DNA from: Sinorhizobium meliloti
GTDB taxonomy: Bacteria; Pseudomonadota; Alphaproteobacteria; Rhizobiales; Rhizobiaceae
Length of the DNA: 32,000 bases
Assembly (NCBI RefSeq): GCF_017876815.1
Contig: NZ_JAGIOS010000002.1
Span: forward strand, 660,001-692,000
Direction: 5' to 3'
The notes under the pieces were generated by a model. It was not told the origin of the DNA, searched no databases, and saw only the letters and a program-made list of their open reading frames with translations. Below, in pieces: positions 18,223-25,300 of this stretch. Position 1 is the stretch's first letter. Each line of letters begins with the position of its first letter. The position numbers and the translations under genes are program-made.

Positions 18223-18338
18223 GCATTTTCTGTTGACGACGTCAGGGGCAGTCTCCATGCTTGAATGAACGGCGCTGATTCAATCGCGCATACTCAAGGG
18301 GAAGGGCCGCGCGGCGGTCCGAAGCTCAGACGAGAAAA

Positions 18339-19025
18339 ATGAACGAAATCAAATCACTGGAGCAGCGGCCCATAGGCGGCCCGGGACCCATCCGGCGCAC
18401 CGCACTGCACGACACGCTGGTCAGCCATCTGCGCGACATGATCATCGAGGGCGACCTTCCGCCAGGAACCCGTCTGCACGAGGGGCAACTGGGCGAGCAG
18501 CTCGGCGTATCGCGCACGCCGCTGCGCGAGGCGATCAAGTATCTTGCGAGCGAAGGCCTGGTGGAGCTCGTCCCGAGCCGCGGCGCCGTCGTCAAGCGCT
18601 TCAGCGCCAAGGACGTCCGGGACATGCTCACCGTGCTGCAGACCCTGGAGGAGCTCGCAGGCAGGCTTGCCTGCGAGACCGCGACGGATGCGGAGATCGC
18701 CGAAGTGCGGGCGCTCCACGACGAAATGGTGCGCCGCTACGAGGCGGGCGACCGGATGCAATATTACAAGCTCAACCAGGACATCCACTCCGCCATCGCC
18801 CGGCTTTCGGGCAATGCTGCCCTGGCCGACATGCATGCCATGCTGCAGACGCGGCTGAAGCGCATCCGCTTCATCGGCCATGAAGGCCCGGAGAAATGGG
18901 CCGCAGCGGTCGCCGAACATCAGGAAATGATCGCCGCTCTGGAAGCGCGCGACAAAGCCAGGCTATCGGAAGTGCTGGGGCTTCATCTGACGAGGGCCTG
19001 GGAGCGGGTGCGCGACGCGGTTTAG
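18339..19025 (+). CDS. GntR-family transcriptional regulator, FadR/FCD subfamily
   Basis: 228 aa. wHTH (GEQLGVSRTPLREAIKYLASEGLVELVPSRGAVV) followed by an all-helical FCD-type domain with conserved His residues. Divergent from the PdxA-like/TTT operon. Confidence 0.88.
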   Translation: MNEIKSLEQRPIGGPGPIRRTALHDTLVSHLRDMIIEGDLPPGTRLHEGQLGEQLGVSRTPLREAIKYLASEGLVELVPSRGAVVKRFSAKDVRDMLTVLQTLEELAGRLACETATDAEIAEVRALHDEMVRRYEAGDRMQYYKLNQDIHSAIARLSGNAALADMHAMLQTRLKRIRFIGHEGPEKWAAAVAEHQEMIAALEARDKARLSEVLGLHLTRAWERVRDAV

Positions 19026-19046
19026 GGCGGACGCGAGGCAAAATAA

Positions 19047-19070
19047 CCCCCTCTGACAGGCCAGAGGGGG
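19047..19070 (-). terminator. Intrinsic terminator hairpin between convergent genes
   Basis: CCCCCTCTG-ACAGGC-CAGAGGGGG (9-bp stem, 6-nt loop). On the minus strand it is followed by TTATTTT, so it suits the 19090-19635 gene. On the plus strand there is no U-tract. Confidence 0.55.
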
Positions 19071-19089
19071 GTATCACCCTCCGCGCCGA

Positions 19090-19635
19090 TCACTTCACCG
19101 CCAGCAGACAGATATAGGAAAGCACCGTTACGAGCAGCCCGTGGAAGGCGAAGCTGACGCAGCGGTATTTGCCGCAGGCGATCGCCGCGAGCGCGTCTGC
19201 GTTCTCGGCGTATTGACGGAAGAGAAAGTCCTGATCGCCGGCCCCCGCTGCCCGCATGAAACCTTCCCGATGACGGGACCAGGCGCCCCAGAACAGCGTC
19301 GTCGAGGTTGCGCTCTTCCTGGGCAGGACCACGAGGATCGCCGAAACGATCGAGAAGATCGATGCAAGCGCCAGCATAGCCGAGAATACCATCGTGACGG
19401 TGCTGCCCTCCGCATAGCGCTGCCAGGCAAAGACGCTCCGCCCTTCTTGCGAAGTGACCAGAAAGGCGAACATGAAAGTGAAGATATAAGCCGCCTTCTG
19501 ATCGGACGTCTTTATCTGATCGGCAAAGACGTCGTTGATCTTCCTGATGTGGTCGTAATAGGCCCCCAGCGCCGCATCCGGCCCGGCTCCTTCACTTGGA
19601 GGATCGAGCCTGTACAGATTTCCCCCTGATTCCAT
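19090..19635 (-). CDS. Small three-TM membrane protein of unknown function; layout reminiscent of Pycsar TM effectors (DUF5706/PycTM-like)
   Basis: ATG 19635 lies 6 nt behind GGGGAG (181 aa); the track start at 19698 is upstream of the RBS. A soluble N-terminus is followed by AAYIFTFMFAFLVTS, TVTMVFSAMLALASIFSIVSAILVVL and VSFAFHGLLVTVLSYICLLAV. GC content is clearly lower than in the neighbours. The family assignment is from memory only. Confidence 0.6.
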   Translation of the reverse strand: MESGGNLYRLDPPSEGAGPDAALGAYYDHIRKINDVFADQIKTSDQKAAYIFTFMFAFLVTSQEGRSVFAWQRYAEGSTVTMVFSAMLALASIFSIVSAILVVLPRKSATSTTLFWGAWSRHREGFMRAAGAGDQDFLFRQYAENADALAAIACGKYRCVSFAFHGLLVTVLSYICLLAVK

Positions 19636-19765
19636 CCGCCACTCCCCTCTATTTCGTCTCCTCTTTATTACACTCCACCAGTAAAGAGATACGCCCAAAA
19701 CTGGGCTCTTGACTTTTCCTCCCTATAAATCCACTGGATTCACTATAGCGAGGGGTATTTCGGGA

Positions 19766-22700
19766 ATGCGGGGAAGAAGAACGGGGGCATTGCTTGCCGC
19801 GGTGACGCTTTTTGCGCCCTTGTGGGCGCTTGCCGAGCCGGTTCCGCGCCCGTCACCCGCGGCCGGCTCCGTCATTGCCCGCAAATCCGGCGAGGAGGTG
19901 CGCTTCGTCGACGTTTCCAACTGGCGGGTCGTCGACCTCGCCCAGGACCTGCTTCCCGGCGACGTGCTGCGCACCAACGCAAGGGGCGCGCTGGCCGTCC
20001 TCTTCAGAGATCACACGCAGATAAGGCTGGGGCGCAATACCGCGCTGCGCGTCAAGCAGATCGGGGCGGGCGACACGAATCTCGGGCTGGAATCGGGTAC
20101 GATCTGGGCCCGCGCCGAGCGTGGCGGCGAGGGCCTGGTCATCGATACGCCGGCCGCAGCCGCCGCCATCCGCGGTACCGACTGGACGCTGACGGTCGGC
20201 GCCGACGGAAAGACTTCGCTCGTCGTCCTCGAAGGCGTCGTCGAACTCAGCAATGCCTATGGCAGCGTGACGGTGAAGCAGGGCGAAGGCGCCGTTGCCG
20301 CGATCGGCAGCGCGCCGGCGAAGATCGTGATCGTTACGCCGAAGGACCGCGAGCAGATGCTCTTTCATCTGTCGCTCCGCAATGCCTTCGTCTGGATGCC
20401 GGCCACGCCCTTCAGCGTTCCCGAGATGCGCCGCGAGCGTGCGCGCATCGAGGCCTCGCCGGCAGCATCCCGCCCGGCCGAGGAATGGCTGACGCTTGCC
20501 GAGATTTATCTTTCCCTGAATGGCCGCGACAAGGCTCAGGCCGCGCTCGCGGAAGCCGCGAGCCGGGGCCTGACCCGCTCCCAGGCGGCACGTGCCGACC
20601 TCGTCAAGGCATTGATCGCCGGTTCTTCGAACCGCTACGAAGAGGCGGCGCGTCTGTTCGCCAGGGCCGAACGCGGCCTCGACCCGAGCCGCCGTACGAT
20701 CGCGGCCTATGGCGGCTATTTTGCGCGCGGGCTCGCCGATCCTGCCCGCGTGGAGGAGCCGCCGCGCAACGCAAGCGGCCGCTATGCGGGCATGGCCCGG
20801 GCCTGGACTGCCGGCTTCCGGGAAGACATCCCCGCGGCGATCGCGGTGATCAAGAAGGCCGAGCAGCAATATCCCGACGACCCGACCCTGCCCGCGGCAC
20901 GCGCGCAGCTCGCCCTCCTGCTGGATGACCGCGACGAGCTTCGCGACGGTGTCGAGCGGGCGCTATCGATCGATCCAGACGACCCGACTGCGCTCGAGGC
21001 GCGCGCCCACTACCGCTATCACATCGACAACGATCTCGAGGGCGCCCTTGCTGATCTCGAAAGGGCGCTGAAAACCGCTCCGGGCTCCTCCTCCATCTGG
21101 AATTCCCTCGGACTGGTCCAGGGCGCGCGCGGCGACAACCGTGCCGCCGAGGCTGCCTTCAAGCAGGCGATTGCGCTCGATCCGCTCGATCCCGTCTCCC
21201 ACGCAAACCTCGCAATACAATACATGGACGAGATGCGGATGGCCGAGGCGAAGCGGGAGATCGACGCCGCGCTTTCCGTCGATCCCTCCTTCGACGTGGC
21301 GCTGGTGGCACGCGGCCGCTATCACATGCAGAACGGCGAGGCCGACAAGGCGGTCGAAGACCTGCTCGCCGGCTCGACGGCCAATCCGGCCTACTCGAAC
21401 GCACAGCTCCTGCTCGCGGCCGCGCATTACGAGAAGGGCGACCGCATTCCGGCAGCTCAGGCGCTCGACAATGCCGACAGGCTCGACCCGAACGATCCCG
21501 TCGTCGCGACGGTCAGAACCGCGATCGCGATCGACGCCTACGACGCCGACGCGGCCATTCGCAACGCTCAGGAAGCCCTGCGCCGCACCCGCGCCAAGGG
21601 CGGCGACACGGCGGCACTCGGCGCCAACCAGGAACAAGGATCGACGCTCAACGACGCCTTCCGCCTGCAGGGTTTGGATGCCTGGGGCCAATATTACGGC
21701 GACGCCGTCTTCGATCCCTTCACCGGTGCCAGCTATGTCGACCAGGCGGTCCGCGGCAGCGTCAATCCCTTCTTCAACGCCTACGATTTCGCCGCCAACG
21801 CCGTCACGAACACGGTCAATACCACGAGCTTTTCCGCTCTCATCCAGGGGCTTCTGATCGAACCGCATATGCTCGCCAGCCGCGAGCGAACGGTCAACCT
21901 GCTGCGTTCGCCCTTTTTCGAGACGGAGCTCGGCGGCGGGTTCATCGCCAATGACGATCATACCGGATGGGTCGGGGAAGCGGCCGTTCGCGGATTTACC
22001 GTCTCGCCGTTCCCGATCAGCGTCTACGGGACGTTCCAGTGGGAGGAGCCGAAGGATGTGGTCGATCTCGGAGGCGCCCGAGTGGAACGAGAGCTGCGGA
22101 TAATCGGAGGCAACGGCTACGTTACGGCCAGTCCGACGCCCGATGACCGCATTGTAGTCTTCGCGAACTATTCCGATATCGAGGAGACACAGCAATTTCT
22201 GCCTGTTCCGCCTGACCTTGAGATAGGGGACGAGTCTTCCGGCCTCATTTCCGGGCTCGCATGGAGCCATACATTCGGATACCGCAACGTCGGAAACGCC
22301 GCGTTGTTTTTCAGGGAACTCCGCACCGGTGATAGCCTATCCATTCTGGATGCCAGCGGCGCTGGAGGGACCATCGATCTTGAAACGAAGGAGCGGACCT
22401 ATATCGCTGCAGTGAACCACTTGTATGGAGATGGGGACCTGACGTGGCGCTATGGCGTTGAGGGCGGGAAGGTCCGGTCGGACAGTTCACCGGCCGTCTT
22501 CGACTCGTCCACGCAAGCGGTGGCGAAAGCCTATGTTGATGTCCTCTATGAAATGACCCCGGACCTCAAAGTCGAAGGCGCCCTGTTCGCCCGTTACATA
22601 GAGGACGTCAACGACAACAATATCCGGCTTGAGCCGAGACTCGGGATCGCCTGGGCACCGGCCGAGGGCCATTGGCTGCGCGCCGCCGTTCAGCGCGACG

Positions 22701-23338
22701 GCTATAATTTCGGCTCTGCCACGCTTGCGCCAGTCGGCATCGTCGGACTGCAGCCCAACCAGTTCCTGATCGGCACGGGCGGCTATGCCGACACGCTGGC
22801 CTTGCGCTGGGATGCCGAGTGGAACGACTGGCTCTTTACAGCCGTCGACTACCAGCACCAGGAAATCCGCGACGGTTCAATTGCCATCCCGGTCACCAGC
22901 CCCTTCTTCGCACTGACGGATTTCCCTTTCGACAAGGGCCGCATCGACCGCGTGGCATTAACCGCAAACCTCGCGCTCGGTCACGGATTCGGCCTATCGG
23001 CGACGATGGCCCGCACGGAAAGCGAGGACCGGTCGGCAGGCGCCGGCGGCGATCTGCCCTTCCTGCCGGAATATTCGGGCCAAGTGGCACTCACCTTTGT
23101 CAGCACAGCCAACATCAAAACGACCGTCGCCGCCAACTACGTAGGCGAGCGAGCGGAGGGTTCGATAACCCACGACGACTTCTGGACGGTCGACGCCGCT
23201 CTCCAATGGGAGCCCTTCGACAAGCGGTTCGAAGTCGAACTCGCCGGCTTCAACCTTCTGGACGAGGAGTTCGAGGTGCGCGACGGGCTGCCCGGCTGGG
23301 GTCCCACGGTCAAGGGCACCGTCAAAGTGCGGTTCTGA
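19766..23338 (+). CDS. nsrA: Large secreted FecR-domain / TPR-repeat / C-terminal beta-barrel outer-membrane protein (NsrA-like signal receptor)
   Basis: ATG 19766 gives the signal peptide MRGRRTGALLAAVTLFAPLWALA. FecR-like beta-sandwich at about 19900-20300 (LLPGDVLRTNARGALAVLFRDHTQIRLGRNT...IRGTDW). TPR-like helical repeats at about 20480-21600. The amphipathic beta-strand-rich C-terminus ends in VKVRF, an OMP-type terminal Phe. From memory, the position upstream of a CHASE2 cyclase matches S. meliloti nsrA-cyaK. Confidence 0.8.
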   Translation: MRGRRTGALLAAVTLFAPLWALAEPVPRPSPAAGSVIARKSGEEVRFVDVSNWRVVDLAQDLLPGDVLRTNARGALAVLFRDHTQIRLGRNTALRVKQIGAGDTNLGLESGTIWARAERGGEGLVIDTPAAAAAIRGTDWTLTVGADGKTSLVVLEGVVELSNAYGSVTVKQGEGAVAAIGSAPAKIVIVTPKDREQMLFHLSLRNAFVWMPATPFSVPEMRRERARIEASPAASRPAEEWLTLAEIYLSLNGRDKAQAALAEAASRGLTRSQAARADLVKALIAGSSNRYEEAARLFARAERGLDPSRRTIAAYGGYFARGLADPARVEEPPRNASGRYAGMARAWTAGFREDIPAAIAVIKKAEQQYPDDPTLPAARAQLALLLDDRDELRDGVERALSIDPDDPTALEARAHYRYHIDNDLEGALADLERALKTAPGSSSIWNSLGLVQGARGDNRAAEAAFKQAIALDPLDPVSHANLAIQYMDEMRMAEAKREIDAALSVDPSFDVALVARGRYHMQNGEADKAVEDLLAGSTANPAYSNAQLLLAAAHYEKGDRIPAAQALDNADRLDPNDPVVATVRTAIAIDAYDADAAIRNAQEALRRTRAKGGDTAALGANQEQGSTLNDAFRLQGLDAWGQYYGDAVFDPFTGASYVDQAVRGSVNPFFNAYDFAANAVTNTVNTTSFSALIQGLLIEPHMLASRERTVNLLRSPFFETELGGGFIANDDHTGWVGEAAVRGFTVSPFPISVYGTFQWEEPKDVVDLGGARVERELRIIGGNGYVTASPTPDDRIVVFANYSDIEETQQFLPVPPDLEIGDESSGLISGLAWSHTFGYRNVGNAALFFRELRTGDSLSILDASGAGGTIDLETKERTYIAAVNHLYGDGDLTWRYGVEGGKVRSDSSPAVFDSSTQAVAKAYVDVLYEMTPDLKVEGALFARYIEDVNDNNIRLEPRLGIAWAPAEGHWLRAAVQRDGYNFGSATLAPVGIVGLQPNQFLIGTGGYADTLALRWDAEWNDWLFTAVDYQHQEIRDGSIAIPVTSPFFALTDFPFDKGRIDRVALTANLALGHGFGLSATMARTESEDRSAGAGGDLPFLPEYSGQVALTFVSTANIKTTVAANYVGERAEGSITHDDFWTVDAALQWEPFDKRFEVELAGFNLLDEEFEVRDGLPGWGPTVKGTVKVRF

Positions 23339-25287
23339 TGAACGACTTTCGCGAGCTTCGCCTTTCCTCCCGGCGGGTAAAGCTTGCCGCGCTGACGGCC
23401 TTCGTGGCCGCCCTCGTCTCGGCTGTCTCGCTGACCGGTACGTGGTCGCTGGTGGACCTGCGCGCCTATGACTATCTCTCGATCGTCGGCCGGCCAACGC
23501 TACCGGAAGACGGCCCCGTTATCGTCGCGATTGACGAACCGTCTATGGCCGAGATCGGCAGCCAGTGGCCTTGGCCGCGCGCCCTGCACGCCCGGCTGAT
23601 CCAGGCGCTGAGAGTCGCCGGCGCCAGGGCGATCGCACTCGACGTGATCTTCGCCGAACCGGCCGCCGCGCCGGAGAACGATCAGGCGCTTGCCGAAGTC
23701 CTCGGGTCCGATGTGGTGCTTGCCGGCGACGAGACGCTGATCCGGACACCGCAGGCAGAGCAGTTCGTCCGGACCGAGCCTCTTCCCGTCTTTCTGGAGC
23801 GGGGCGCCAAGGTGGGCATCGCCTCGGTCGACCTCAGCGGCGACGGCACGCTCAGGCAGATTCCCTCCTATCCAGACGGCTTGGCCGTGACGCTCGCAAC
23901 CGTCGCCGGTGCAAAACCTGCCCATCCGCCGAGACGAGCCCTGATGCAGACCTTCGGCCCGGCGCGCACCTACCCGACCGTTTCCTACTATCAGGCGCTC
24001 GACCCCGAAAGTTTCCTTCCGGAAGAAACGTTCCGCGGTCGGGTCGTCATCGTGGGCCTGAGCCTGCAGAACGCCCCGACCATCTCGGGCGGCGGCATCG
24101 ATGCCTTCGCCACCTCCGACACGGTCTTTTCCCGCGGTCTCGTCGCCGGCGCCGAGATCCACGCGACCATCTACGACAATCTCGTGCACCGGCTGTTCGT
24201 CAAGCGGGCGGGAGCGGCGGTCGCCGTCACCGCGATCGTCCTCGCCAGCCTTGCCGCAGCCCTTGCCGTCCTCGGGTCGACAAGCTGGAAGACGCTCGGA
24301 TACGGCGCCCTCGCCCTTATTCTGATCTTTCTTGCAAGCTACGGCCTGATGCGCCTCGCCCATGTGTTCGTCTCGCCGCTCGCACCGGCACTTGCTTTTC
24401 TCGGCGTGGCAGTCGGGCAGGCCGGCCTCGACTATGCGGAAGAAAGGCGACGACGACGCGCGATCACCCGTGCCTTCTCGCAGTATCTCTCGCCCGCGCT
24501 CGTCGAGCGGCTGGCGAGAGACCCCTCGCAATTGAAGCTCGGCGGCGAAAGACGGACGCTGACGGTACTCTTCTGCGACGTTCGCGGCTTCACCACCATA
24601 TCGGAGGACATGAAGGACGATCCGGAGGGGCTGACGACGCTCATCAACCGGCTCCTGACCCCTCTTTCGGAGGCGGTGCTCAACCGGCGCGGCACGATCG
24701 ACAAATATATCGGCGACTGCCTGATGGCATTCTGGAACGCGCCGCTCGACGATCCGGACCATGCCGTCCATGCCGTTCAGGCGGCGCGCGACATGCTCAC
24801 CGCCCTCGGCGATCTCAACGCGGAGCTGGAAGCCGAGGCGAAAGCGGCGGGACGTCCGCCGAAGACGCTGAGGATCGGCATCGGCATCAACACGGGCGAA
24901 TGCGTCGTCGGCAATATGGGCTCGGCCCGCCGCTTCGATTATTCGGCACTGGGCGACGCGGTCAATCTCGCCTCCCGCCTCGAAGGTGCCTCCAAGGACT
25001 ACGGCGTGCCGCTGCTCCTCGGCGAGCGTACGGCAACACTTGCCGCCCGGAAATTTGCGGTTGCCGAGCTCGACCGCATCACCGTCAAGGGACGCAGCGC
25101 GGTCTCCCCCGTCTTCACCCTGGCCGACGGCGCTTCGGAACCGGCGCTCGAACGCCACCGCGCCTACCTCGCCCGGAAATACAGCGGCGAGATCGCTGCC
25201 GATGACGGCTTGTTCGATGAACTCAAGGCGGCGCTGCCGCCGCTCGCGCGCTATTACGAGCGTGAGCGGGAACGGCTGCTGAAATAG
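23338..25287 (+). CDS. cyaK: Receptor-type class III adenylate cyclase with periplasmic CHASE2 domain (CyaK-like)
   Basis: ATG 23338 overlaps the nsrA stop (TGATG). N-terminal TM helix, CHASE2-like region (about 23440-24200), three TM helices, then the cyclase domain (about 24550-25120). Metal-binding Asp residues are in FCDVRGF and IGDCLMA. Substrate-determining residues are Lys456 (24703-24705) and Asp534 (24937-24939). Asn543 and Arg547 sit in VNLASR. The track ORF from 22819 is a run-in over nsrA. Confidence 0.9.
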   Translation: MNDFRELRLSSRRVKLAALTAFVAALVSAVSLTGTWSLVDLRAYDYLSIVGRPTLPEDGPVIVAIDEPSMAEIGSQWPWPRALHARLIQALRVAGARAIALDVIFAEPAAAPENDQALAEVLGSDVVLAGDETLIRTPQAEQFVRTEPLPVFLERGAKVGIASVDLSGDGTLRQIPSYPDGLAVTLATVAGAKPAHPPRRALMQTFGPARTYPTVSYYQALDPESFLPEETFRGRVVIVGLSLQNAPTISGGGIDAFATSDTVFSRGLVAGAEIHATIYDNLVHRLFVKRAGAAVAVTAIVLASLAAALAVLGSTSWKTLGYGALALILIFLASYGLMRLAHVFVSPLAPALAFLGVAVGQAGLDYAEERRRRRAITRAFSQYLSPALVERLARDPSQLKLGGERRTLTVLFCDVRGFTTISEDMKDDPEGLTTLINRLLTPLSEAVLNRRGTIDKYIGDCLMAFWNAPLDDPDHAVHAVQAARDMLTALGDLNAELEAEAKAAGRPPKTLRIGIGINTGECVVGNMGSARRFDYSALGDAVNLASRLEGASKDYGVPLLLGERTATLAARKFAVAELDRITVKGRSAVSPVFTLADGASEPALERHRAYLARKYSGEIAADDGLFDELKAALPPLARYYERERERLLK

Positions 25288-25300
25288 CGGAAGGCGCGCG

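Follow-up and report, generated by a model that had tools for sequence, protein, structure and literature searches.

We analysed a 32,000-nucleotide stretch of Sinorhizobium meliloti DNA (assembly GCF_017876815.1, contig NZ_JAGIOS010000002.1, positions 660,001 to 692,000; hereafter the window), and found that a small minus-strand gene in it encodes a member of the PycTM family (DUF5706, the pJV1-SpdB3 family with three transmembrane (TM) helices), with the three TM helices in a 2+1 layout. This gene, here called the PycTM-like gene, lies back to back with nsrA, which encodes an outer-membrane signal-perception protein, and cyaK, which encodes a receptor-type class III adenylate cyclase, and its 181-residue product probably adds a third component, unstudied to date, to the conserved NsrA-CyaK module. 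The family assignment itself is already public through NCBI labels and hence is not new; what is new is that the gene is conservedly paired with those for a receptor cyclase and an outer-membrane sensor, and that the PycTM family has a wider sensory-cyclase branch. The best reading of the protein is a membrane output of CyaK and NsrA that answers CyaK's nucleotide, beside the output through the cyclic AMP (cAMP) receptor Clr, because the linkage is conserved and because characterised three-TM proteins of the PycTM type are described as membrane effectors triggered by the product of the neighbouring cyclase. We give this reading an even chance.

The protein was assigned to its family by several models. 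Pfam PF18967 (PycTM) matches residues 77-167 on profile positions 5-104 of 107 with 45.7 bits (gathering score 27.2, E 9.4e-12). Three PADLOC PycTM models match as well, namely PDLC02364 over nearly its full length (residues 28-179 on model positions 7-148 of 160, E 2.1e-15), PDLC02363 (E 3.4e-11) and PDLC02365 (E 0.004), while NCBIfam holds no model matching the 181-residue protein. PF18967 is also the precomputed annotation on all homologues, and NCBI names close homologues 'DUF5706 domain-containing protein' or 'Pycsar system effector family protein'. A preliminary description of the window had proposed the DUF5706/PycTM family, and both this call and the motifs given with it are confirmed. 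Specifically, in a 26-sequence alignment reaching down to 19-20% identity the only invariant columns are D45, K47, P105 and K156, which are the positions of the D-x-K motif before TM1, the P-R motif after TM2 and the K-Y-R motif before TM3.

An AlphaFold2 model (AF2; 41-sequence alignment) is all-helical with a predicted local distance difference test (pLDDT) score of 80.9, and contains helices at residues 19-61, 79-103, 118-132 and 135-180. In this model, one long helix leads from the cytosolic N-terminal region into TM1 and is followed by TM2, and a helical cytosolic loop continues into TM3; Kyte-Doolittle hydropathy peaks fall at residues 47-62, 77-107 and 158-181. Positive charge is concentrated in the N-terminus and the 105-157 loop, and both segments are predicted from this distribution to be cytoplasmic. 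The close clade has 40 invariant columns, 18 of which lie in predicted cytosolic segments, and an unbroken invariant run of 11 residues (DQKAAYIFTFM) enters TM1. Full-length members of this clade score at least 110 bits, while other PycTM representatives score at most 50 bits. Foldseek comparison of the AF2 model with the PDB, a set without a PycTM or PucTM chain, gave no match at E <= 0.001 and only generic helical bundles, and comparison with BFVD, which likewise is without a PycTM-type structure, had the same outcome. A profile search of PDB sequences, again without such a chain, found nothing below E 0.47. The lack of a structural match is expected, because the sole PycTM-type structure that we found described is in a preprint of August 2026.

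The PycTM-like ORF (open reading frame) is a real gene, as judged from its ratio of nonsynonymous to synonymous substitution rates (dN/dS of 0.13-0.27 against nine orthologues, similar to the values of its neighbours and partners) and from homologues that number in the hundreds in database searches. The ORF is present in the window at 19090..19698, and its start at ATG 19635 behind GGGGAG, as well as its length of 181 residues, had been correctly proposed in the preliminary description. The same ATG opens the 546-nt coding sequence that the Prokaryotic Genome Annotation Pipeline (PGAP) calls a 'DUF5706 domain-containing protein' in an identical S. meliloti pSymB record, and AGGGG and the start ATG are kept across the aligned Sinorhizobium orthologues. 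The three hydrophobic helices and the strings SDQKAA, LPRK and GKYR are present exactly as had been quoted. The gene also has the proposed hairpin terminator of its own, for which both the stem and the folding (19070-19047; -34.7 kcal/mol, z-score -3.46) speak. From the position beside smb20775 (nsrA), the locus tag of the gene would be smb20774.

To place the gene in its genomic context, one genome per species was scanned, which gave 245 relatives, and the best 80 of these 245 were examined at locus level. The 80 loci belong to Sinorhizobium/Ensifer, Rhizobium, Shinella, Neorhizobium and Pararhizobium, all in one family. In 80/80 species the PycTM-like gene has a CyaK orthologue (59-94% identity) upstream of it in divergent orientation, and in 69 of them an NsrA orthologue stands between the two genes. 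Eleven Shinella species have no nsrA, and there the PycTM-like gene directly adjoins the divergently oriented cyclase gene, within a chromosomal module located between hut and nuo genes. When the outer 3 kb were clustered, the 80 loci fell into no fewer than 21 contexts on the right flank and no fewer than 22 on the left, so the module has remained intact while its surroundings were reshuffled. The co-occurrence with nsrA-cyaK-type genes that the preliminary description had suggested looking for is thus found throughout, in many outer contexts. Additionally, the identity of the PycTM-like protein to that of the window tracks the identity of CyaK (r = 0.75) and of NsrA (r = 0.73). The module of the window is set among metabolic genes and has no defence-island neighbours. 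Membership of the PycTM-like gene in the gntR/pdxA/tct cluster was rejected, as the gntR/pdxA side is retained in only 8 Sinorhizobium/Ensifer loci.

The same loci settle the meaning of the unusual base composition. The PycTM-like gene has a G+C content of 0.592 and a third-codon-position G+C content (GC3) of 0.742, and its G+C ranks within the lowest 2% when all 546-nt windows of the 32 kb are compared. The preliminary hand counts of G+C per 60-nt line were correct (29, 27, 31 and 26 in the lines starting at 19441, 19501, 19621 and 19681, and 37 in the nsrA line at 22081; the window mean is 38.9), but the view built on them, that the gene is compositionally foreign, had to be abandoned. The same deficit appears in 80/80 species, with a mean of -8.3 points relative to cyaK; GC3 lies below that of cyaK in 74 of the 80 orthologous loci; and the gene is vertically conserved with its partners. 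Because the low G+C recurs in all 80 species, it is a long-standing property of the gene and no mark of recent import, and with the synteny being ancient as well, recent horizontal acquisition was rejected.

Two individual copies may be truncated or frameshifted. In S. medicae USDA1037 (L013, 10001-10498) the match to the PycTM-like protein ends at residue 155 with 75% identity, and in the S. meliloti pSymB record CP130047.1 (H51) the tblastn match falls into three pieces.

Outside Rhizobiaceae, we sampled eleven more distant relatives with 28-45% identity to the PycTM-like protein. A class III cyclase adjoins 7/11 of them, and these cyclases represent three sensory architectures (Table 1). 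The three-gene layout of the window recurs in Jiella (L089), on the contig of a protein that NCBI attributes to Paracoccus sediminis (L086), in GCA_013839445.1 (L090) and on two metagenome contigs (L094 and L097). Within Alphaproteobacteria, the sensory class III cyclases to which one PycTM clade is stably coupled in gene order thus have at least three architectures. At three of these loci, in Jiella marina (L089, 1-2160), GCA_013839445.1 (L090, 1-2274) and one metagenome contig (L094, 1-1308), a Na+/H+ exchanger fused to a cyclic-nucleotide (cNMP)-binding domain lies convergently on the far side of the CHASE2 cyclase. This exchanger adds another nucleotide-responsive membrane protein to the locus; it gives the module a second device for ion flux across the membrane, and is as such a parallel for a membrane output of the cyclase. 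Separately, in two metagenomic loci with a Crp-like regulator, the neighbouring gene divergent to the PycTM-like one encodes a protein of 544-555 residues for which Pfam has no match (L091, 5904-7538; L096, 5027-6694), possibly another recurring partner.

These distributions bear on the question of whether the adjacency carries functional meaning. In principle, the gene could encode an unrelated small membrane protein, its position being inherited gene order and its likeness to PycTM being without functional meaning. The restriction of the 80 loci to one family fits this explanation, as shared ancestry inflates the count, and so do the clade members and the nsrA-cyaK loci that lack the partner, as well as the history of the family, which was a DUF and includes plasmid-spread Streptomyces proteins. 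However, both outer flanks have been reshuffled many times and the inner arrangement never changed, and the pairing outlived the loss of nsrA in Shinella. It also spans Hyphomicrobiales and the contig with the protein attributed to Paracoccus sediminis, and members of the clade are independently paired with two further cyclase architectures. We regard mere inherited adjacency as highly doubtful.

In the proposed mechanism of a membrane output, NsrA would perceive an extracellular signal, uL2 according to published work, at the outer membrane, and the CHASE2 receptor cyclase CyaK would then produce a cyclic nucleotide, which is cAMP in published work. In the inner membrane, the PycTM-like protein, probably as an oligomer, would bind this nucleotide, respond at its conserved cytosolic face and change membrane permeability or ion flux. 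Such a direct membrane output would run parallel to the transcriptional output through Clr.

The conserved adjacency and the shared 130-bp divergent region would fit a partner in a protein complex equally well. The PycTM-like protein could accordingly belong to the CyaK receptor complex as a regulatory or accessory subunit that tunes cyclase activity, assembly, localisation or coupling to NsrA, and that acts upstream of or beside nucleotide synthesis and not as a nucleotide-gated effector. The co-variation of its identities with those of CyaK and NsrA is compatible with this role, and loci without nsrA still keep the linkage to the cyclase; moreover, PF18967 is the sole Pfam family in the protein, which has no recognisable cyclic-nucleotide-binding domain (CNBD). 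We nevertheless consider such a subunit rather unlikely. Those relatives in the family that have been characterised work downstream of cyclases, the clade also stands beside soluble non-CHASE2 cyclases of the Fer2 and response-regulator types, where a membrane co-receptor makes little sense, and both Ensifer adhaerens and Methylocystis have nsrA-cyaK without the gene.

Several observations weigh against the membrane-output reading itself. Among plasmid records, a CyaK orthologue was found in 84 and the PycTM-like gene in 72, so that 12 of the 84 are without it. Nine Ensifer records (those listed include E. adhaerens and E. canadensis) show gntR, a 460-bp gap and then nsrA-cyaK, with the PycTM-like gene nowhere in evidence. 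The gap of about 460 bp between gntR and nsrA on plasmid pA of Ensifer adhaerens M8 (L092, 5449-5911) holds neither a PycTM-like ORF nor a tblastn trace of one, although the sequence on either side of it is orthologous to that of the window; the gene is cleanly missing from the E. adhaerens clade. A Methylocystis plasmid likewise carries an NsrA-like/CHASE2 pair without the gene. Because E. adhaerens, E. canadensis and Methylocystis keep nsrA-cyaK alone, the cyclase pathway works without the PycTM-like gene, and the linkage is optional for the cyclase. From the side of the effector, no cyclase lies within 7-8 kb in 4/11 distant relatives. In the published account, the genetics of signal perception needed only nsrA and cyaK (PMC7529298). 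The shared intergenic region contains neither a Clr box of the form TGTTN8AACA nor the relaxed form HGTYHCNNNNGRWACW, and regulation of the PycTM-like gene by cAMP-Clr is not supported. In addition, nucleotide sensing by PycTM proteins that have no CNBD is unexplained even for characterised members. Finally, S. meliloti has many adenylate cyclases, and exogenous cAMP is routinely fed to it with no reported killing, which makes a simple lethal cAMP-gated pore unlikely; gating, if any, would have to act locally, not kill the cell or be tuned to a different nucleotide.

The tblastn search of plasmids with the PycTM-like protein returned Rhizobiaceae homologues only, classical PycTM proteins being beyond the reach of that search. 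On the Methylocystis iwaonis plasmid (L093, 1654-2504), genes for a RES-family NAD+ phosphorylase and an Xre antitoxin lie directly upstream of the NsrA-like/CHASE2 pair.

The PycTM-like protein was compared with the effectors of Pycsar, the anti-phage resistance system built on a pyrimidine cyclase, in which the PycTM family kills cells infected by phage. The two share membership by hidden Markov model (HMM), a length of about 160-200 residues, three TM helices with a helical cytosolic part and the invariant D-x-K, P-R and K-Y-R positions, and both are encoded beside a nucleotide cyclase of the class III fold. Their partners differ, as that of the window is a CHASE2 receptor adenylate cyclase, whereas that of Pycsar is a standalone pyrimidine cyclase. 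Cyclase and effector are encoded together here in 80/80 species, but divergently, whereas Pycsar genes lie in one operon; the window locus is core-like and vertically inherited, whereas Pycsar is patchy; and the window clade is set apart from other PycTM proteins by the clear score gap described above. Judged from its sequence, CyaK does not appear to be a dedicated cCMP/cUMP (cyclic cytidine or uridine monophosphate) cyclase of the PycC clade. Its closest solved relatives are adenylate cyclases, with Pseudomonas aeruginosa CyaB (3r5g) the best at 2.2e-31, and no PycC structure is found among its 46 PDB matches. A Pycsar system proper, on whose pattern the preliminary description drew, is therefore not supported. 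With its CHASE2 receptor adenylate cyclase, its vertical conservation and its purifying selection, the locus is not a Pycsar system of the classical kind.

A looser relation to phage defence was weighed separately. The locus could be a genuine abortive-infection system of the Pycsar or Pucsar type that has acquired an extracellular sensor and ends in a lethal pore, its role in plant signalling being secondary. The effector family and the cyclase-effector pairing match such a system, purine-making Pycsar relatives with TM effectors exist (bioRxiv 10.64898/2026.08.12.744502), and the catalytic core of CyaK matches PADLOC PycC models (best PDLC00734, 6.8e-26), a match that covers only the generic shared catalytic core. 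The barrel of NsrA is moreover hypervariable between S. meliloti strains, as expected of a surface protein under phage pressure. On the other hand, CyaK is nearest to housekeeping-type class III adenylate cyclases, and cAMP is an everyday messenger in S. meliloti that is tolerated when added. Immune cyclases are reported to be fast-evolving, with long branches, patchy in distribution and located in defence contexts. The module described here shows the opposite pattern, being found in every species examined and in several genera, under purifying selection, with low divergence and away from defence islands. We judge an anti-phage system of this kind improbable.

Among known systems, PucsarTM (EcPucC and EcPucTM) is a purine (cyclic GMP, cGMP) cyclase system with a three-TM effector, and PucTM, which is linked to cGMP, assembles into a hexameric cylinder that has a membrane channel at its centre (bioRxiv 10.64898/2026.08.12.744502). 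Its coupling of a PycTM-type effector to a purine cyclic nucleotide makes it the nearest mechanistic precedent for a cAMP- or cGMP-coupled three-TM protein, and the effector types match. The cyclases differ: Pucsar uses a cytosolic cyclase dedicated to immunity and encoded in a defence operon, whereas CyaK is a membrane receptor cyclase. EcPucTM is also described as carrying an extra cytosolic beta-sheet appendage/CNBD; the AF2 model of the 181-residue protein has none. The '2TM' effectors of cyclic-oligonucleotide-based anti-phage signalling systems (CBASS; PADLOC PDLC00711, PDLC00678 and PDLC00700) give weaker but significant HMM matches (4.2e-07 for PDLC00711), and as a family they too are small nucleotide-activated membrane-disrupting effectors. 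Their scores are far below those of the PycTM models, however, and the window neighbourhood contains no cGAS/DncV-like nucleotidyltransferase (CD-NTase).

With the NsrA-CyaK-Clr cascade the window shares the very genes. The NsrA-CyaK/CyaD1/CyaD2-Clr cascade controls secondary infection in S. meliloti (autoregulation of infection), CyaK being treated in the literature as an adenylate cyclase that feeds Clr, and cAMP-Clr acts on smc02178, smb20495 and smc02177. The published output is thus only transcriptional, and the PycTM-like gene is not among the listed Clr targets and is absent from the text of the Clr-regulon paper. The literature searched mentions neither smb20774 nor DUF5706, and pairs neither CHASE2 with Pycsar nor Pycsar with this Sinorhizobium locus. 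Within this literature, the supposition that the arrangement had not been described before is borne out.

The signal of NsrA and CyaK is free ribosomal protein uL2, which is active from plant, yeast, E. coli and S. meliloti extracts (PMC7529298). This breadth fits a more specific version of the membrane-output reading, in which NsrA-CyaK and the PycTM-like protein would form an outside-in sensor of lysis or danger: uL2 from broken cells would lead to a local nucleotide, opening of a Pycsar-type channel and then depolarisation, dormancy or release of a factor. We consider this version quite unlikely as it stands. If it is true, an immune-effector family has been recruited into, or originated from, receptor-driven signalling that limits secondary infection, and the same would concern a whole sensory PycTM branch paired with CHASE2-, Fer2- and response-regulator-cyclases.

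For symbiosis, the cAMP cascade by which S. meliloti bacteroids shut down further root infection has a sensor (NsrA), cyclases and Clr, and the step to the effect on the plant is missing. The PycTM-like protein, whose gene lies back to back with nsrA-cyaK, readily suggests itself as a candidate for this missing output of infection control. For phage defence, the PycTM family is not confined to mobile Pycsar and Pucsar operons, which raises the questions of whether immune or physiological use came first and whether non-lethal nucleotide-gated channels are possible. Since PADLOC models of both PycC and PycTM match at the locus, automated defence finders may report 'Pycsar' in most rhizobia that carry it.

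Table 1 Features of the locus in the window and genes beside eleven distant relatives of the PycTM-like protein (L numbers designate loci)
Feature	Position or number of loci	Strand	Basis or loci
PycTM/DUF5706-family gene, 181 aa + stop, three-TM inner-membrane protein	19090..19635	(-)	ORF, Pfam, PADLOC, PGAP, dN/dS, AF2
Intrinsic terminator hairpin of the PycTM-like gene	19047..19070	(-)	10-pair stem, 7 G-C; then TTATTTTG T run
Shine-Dalgarno-like GGGGAG	19642..19647	(-)	6 nt upstream of ATG 19635; direct sequence reading
Divergent intergenic region, PycTM-like gene / nsrA, 130 bp	19636..19765	(.)	Sequence; alignment of 14 Sinorhizobium loci
Perfect 6-1-6 palindrome AATCCAcTGGATT, candidate operator	19728..19740	(.)	26 bp upstream of nsrA ATG
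nsrA, outer-membrane signal-perception protein: FecR domain, TPR repeats, C-terminal beta-barrel	19766..23338	(+)	Pfam, PGAP, PMC7529298
cyaK, CHASE2 receptor class III adenylate cyclase	23338..25287	(+)	Pfam, PGAP 'adenylate cyclase CyaK'
NsrA-like + CHASE2 cyclase, layout as in the window	5 loci		L086, L089, L090, L094, L097
2Fe-2S (Fer2)-cyclase with possible phosphodiesterase	1 locus		L083
Response-regulator-cyclase under dCache-HAMP-GAF kinase, Crp-like gene nearby	1 locus		L096
GAF-rich histidine kinases or Crp-like regulator, no cyclase in view	2 loci		L087/L088, L091
No signalling neighbour	2 loci		L085, L095

The window belongs to megaplasmid pSymB of S. meliloti SM11, to which it is 100% identical over the 7 kb compared, and the two neighbouring genes were identified as the published nsrA and cyaK; cyaK is SMb20776 in the literature. 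NsrA matches Pfam FecR (3.2e-15) and several TPR families, with a weak match to an outer-membrane protein barrel, and PGAP names it 'FecR domain-containing protein' or 'nsrA: signal perception protein'. CyaK matches CHASE2 (1.7e-36) and Guanylate_cyc (2e-20). The stop of nsrA and the start of cyaK overlap by 1 nt (TGATG, 23336-23340), from which we conclude that the two genes form an operon. According to the published account, NsrA and CyaK transduce the uL2 signal into cAMP as a relay from the outer-membrane sensor to the inner-membrane cyclase (PMC7529298). Between SM11 and strain 1021 (L002), the 3' part of nsrA that encodes the C-terminal beta-barrel (21900-23300) is only 55-85% identical, and the rest of 18300-25300, the PycTM-like gene included, is 97-100% identical. 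The barrel stretch is also low in G+C, the 60-nt lines at 22141, 22261 and 22381 holding at most 31 each. The divergence of the barrel suggests allelic replacement or diversifying selection on surface loops.

The preliminary description put about 130 bp between the PycTM-like gene and a divergent operon with a class III cyclase at its end; 130 bp do separate the gene from the nsrA ATG at 19766. The extrapolated spacing between the PycTM-like gene and nsrA is short in all loci that contain nsrA. A scan of this shared region with the sigma-70 consensus returned no promoter; an invariant CTTGAC is present there, without a properly spaced -10 element. The 14 aligned Sinorhizobium loci have two invariant blocks in common: AAAAGTCAAG, which reads CTTGAC on the nsrA strand, and, adjoining it, a small GCCCAAAACTGGGC hairpin at 19693-19706. 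The palindrome AATCCAcTGGATT, which occurs once in the window where 0.02 matches are expected, is absent from the Rhizobium, Shinella and Ensifer adhaerens loci and stands at the same place in the 14 Sinorhizobium loci; it is a candidate operator.

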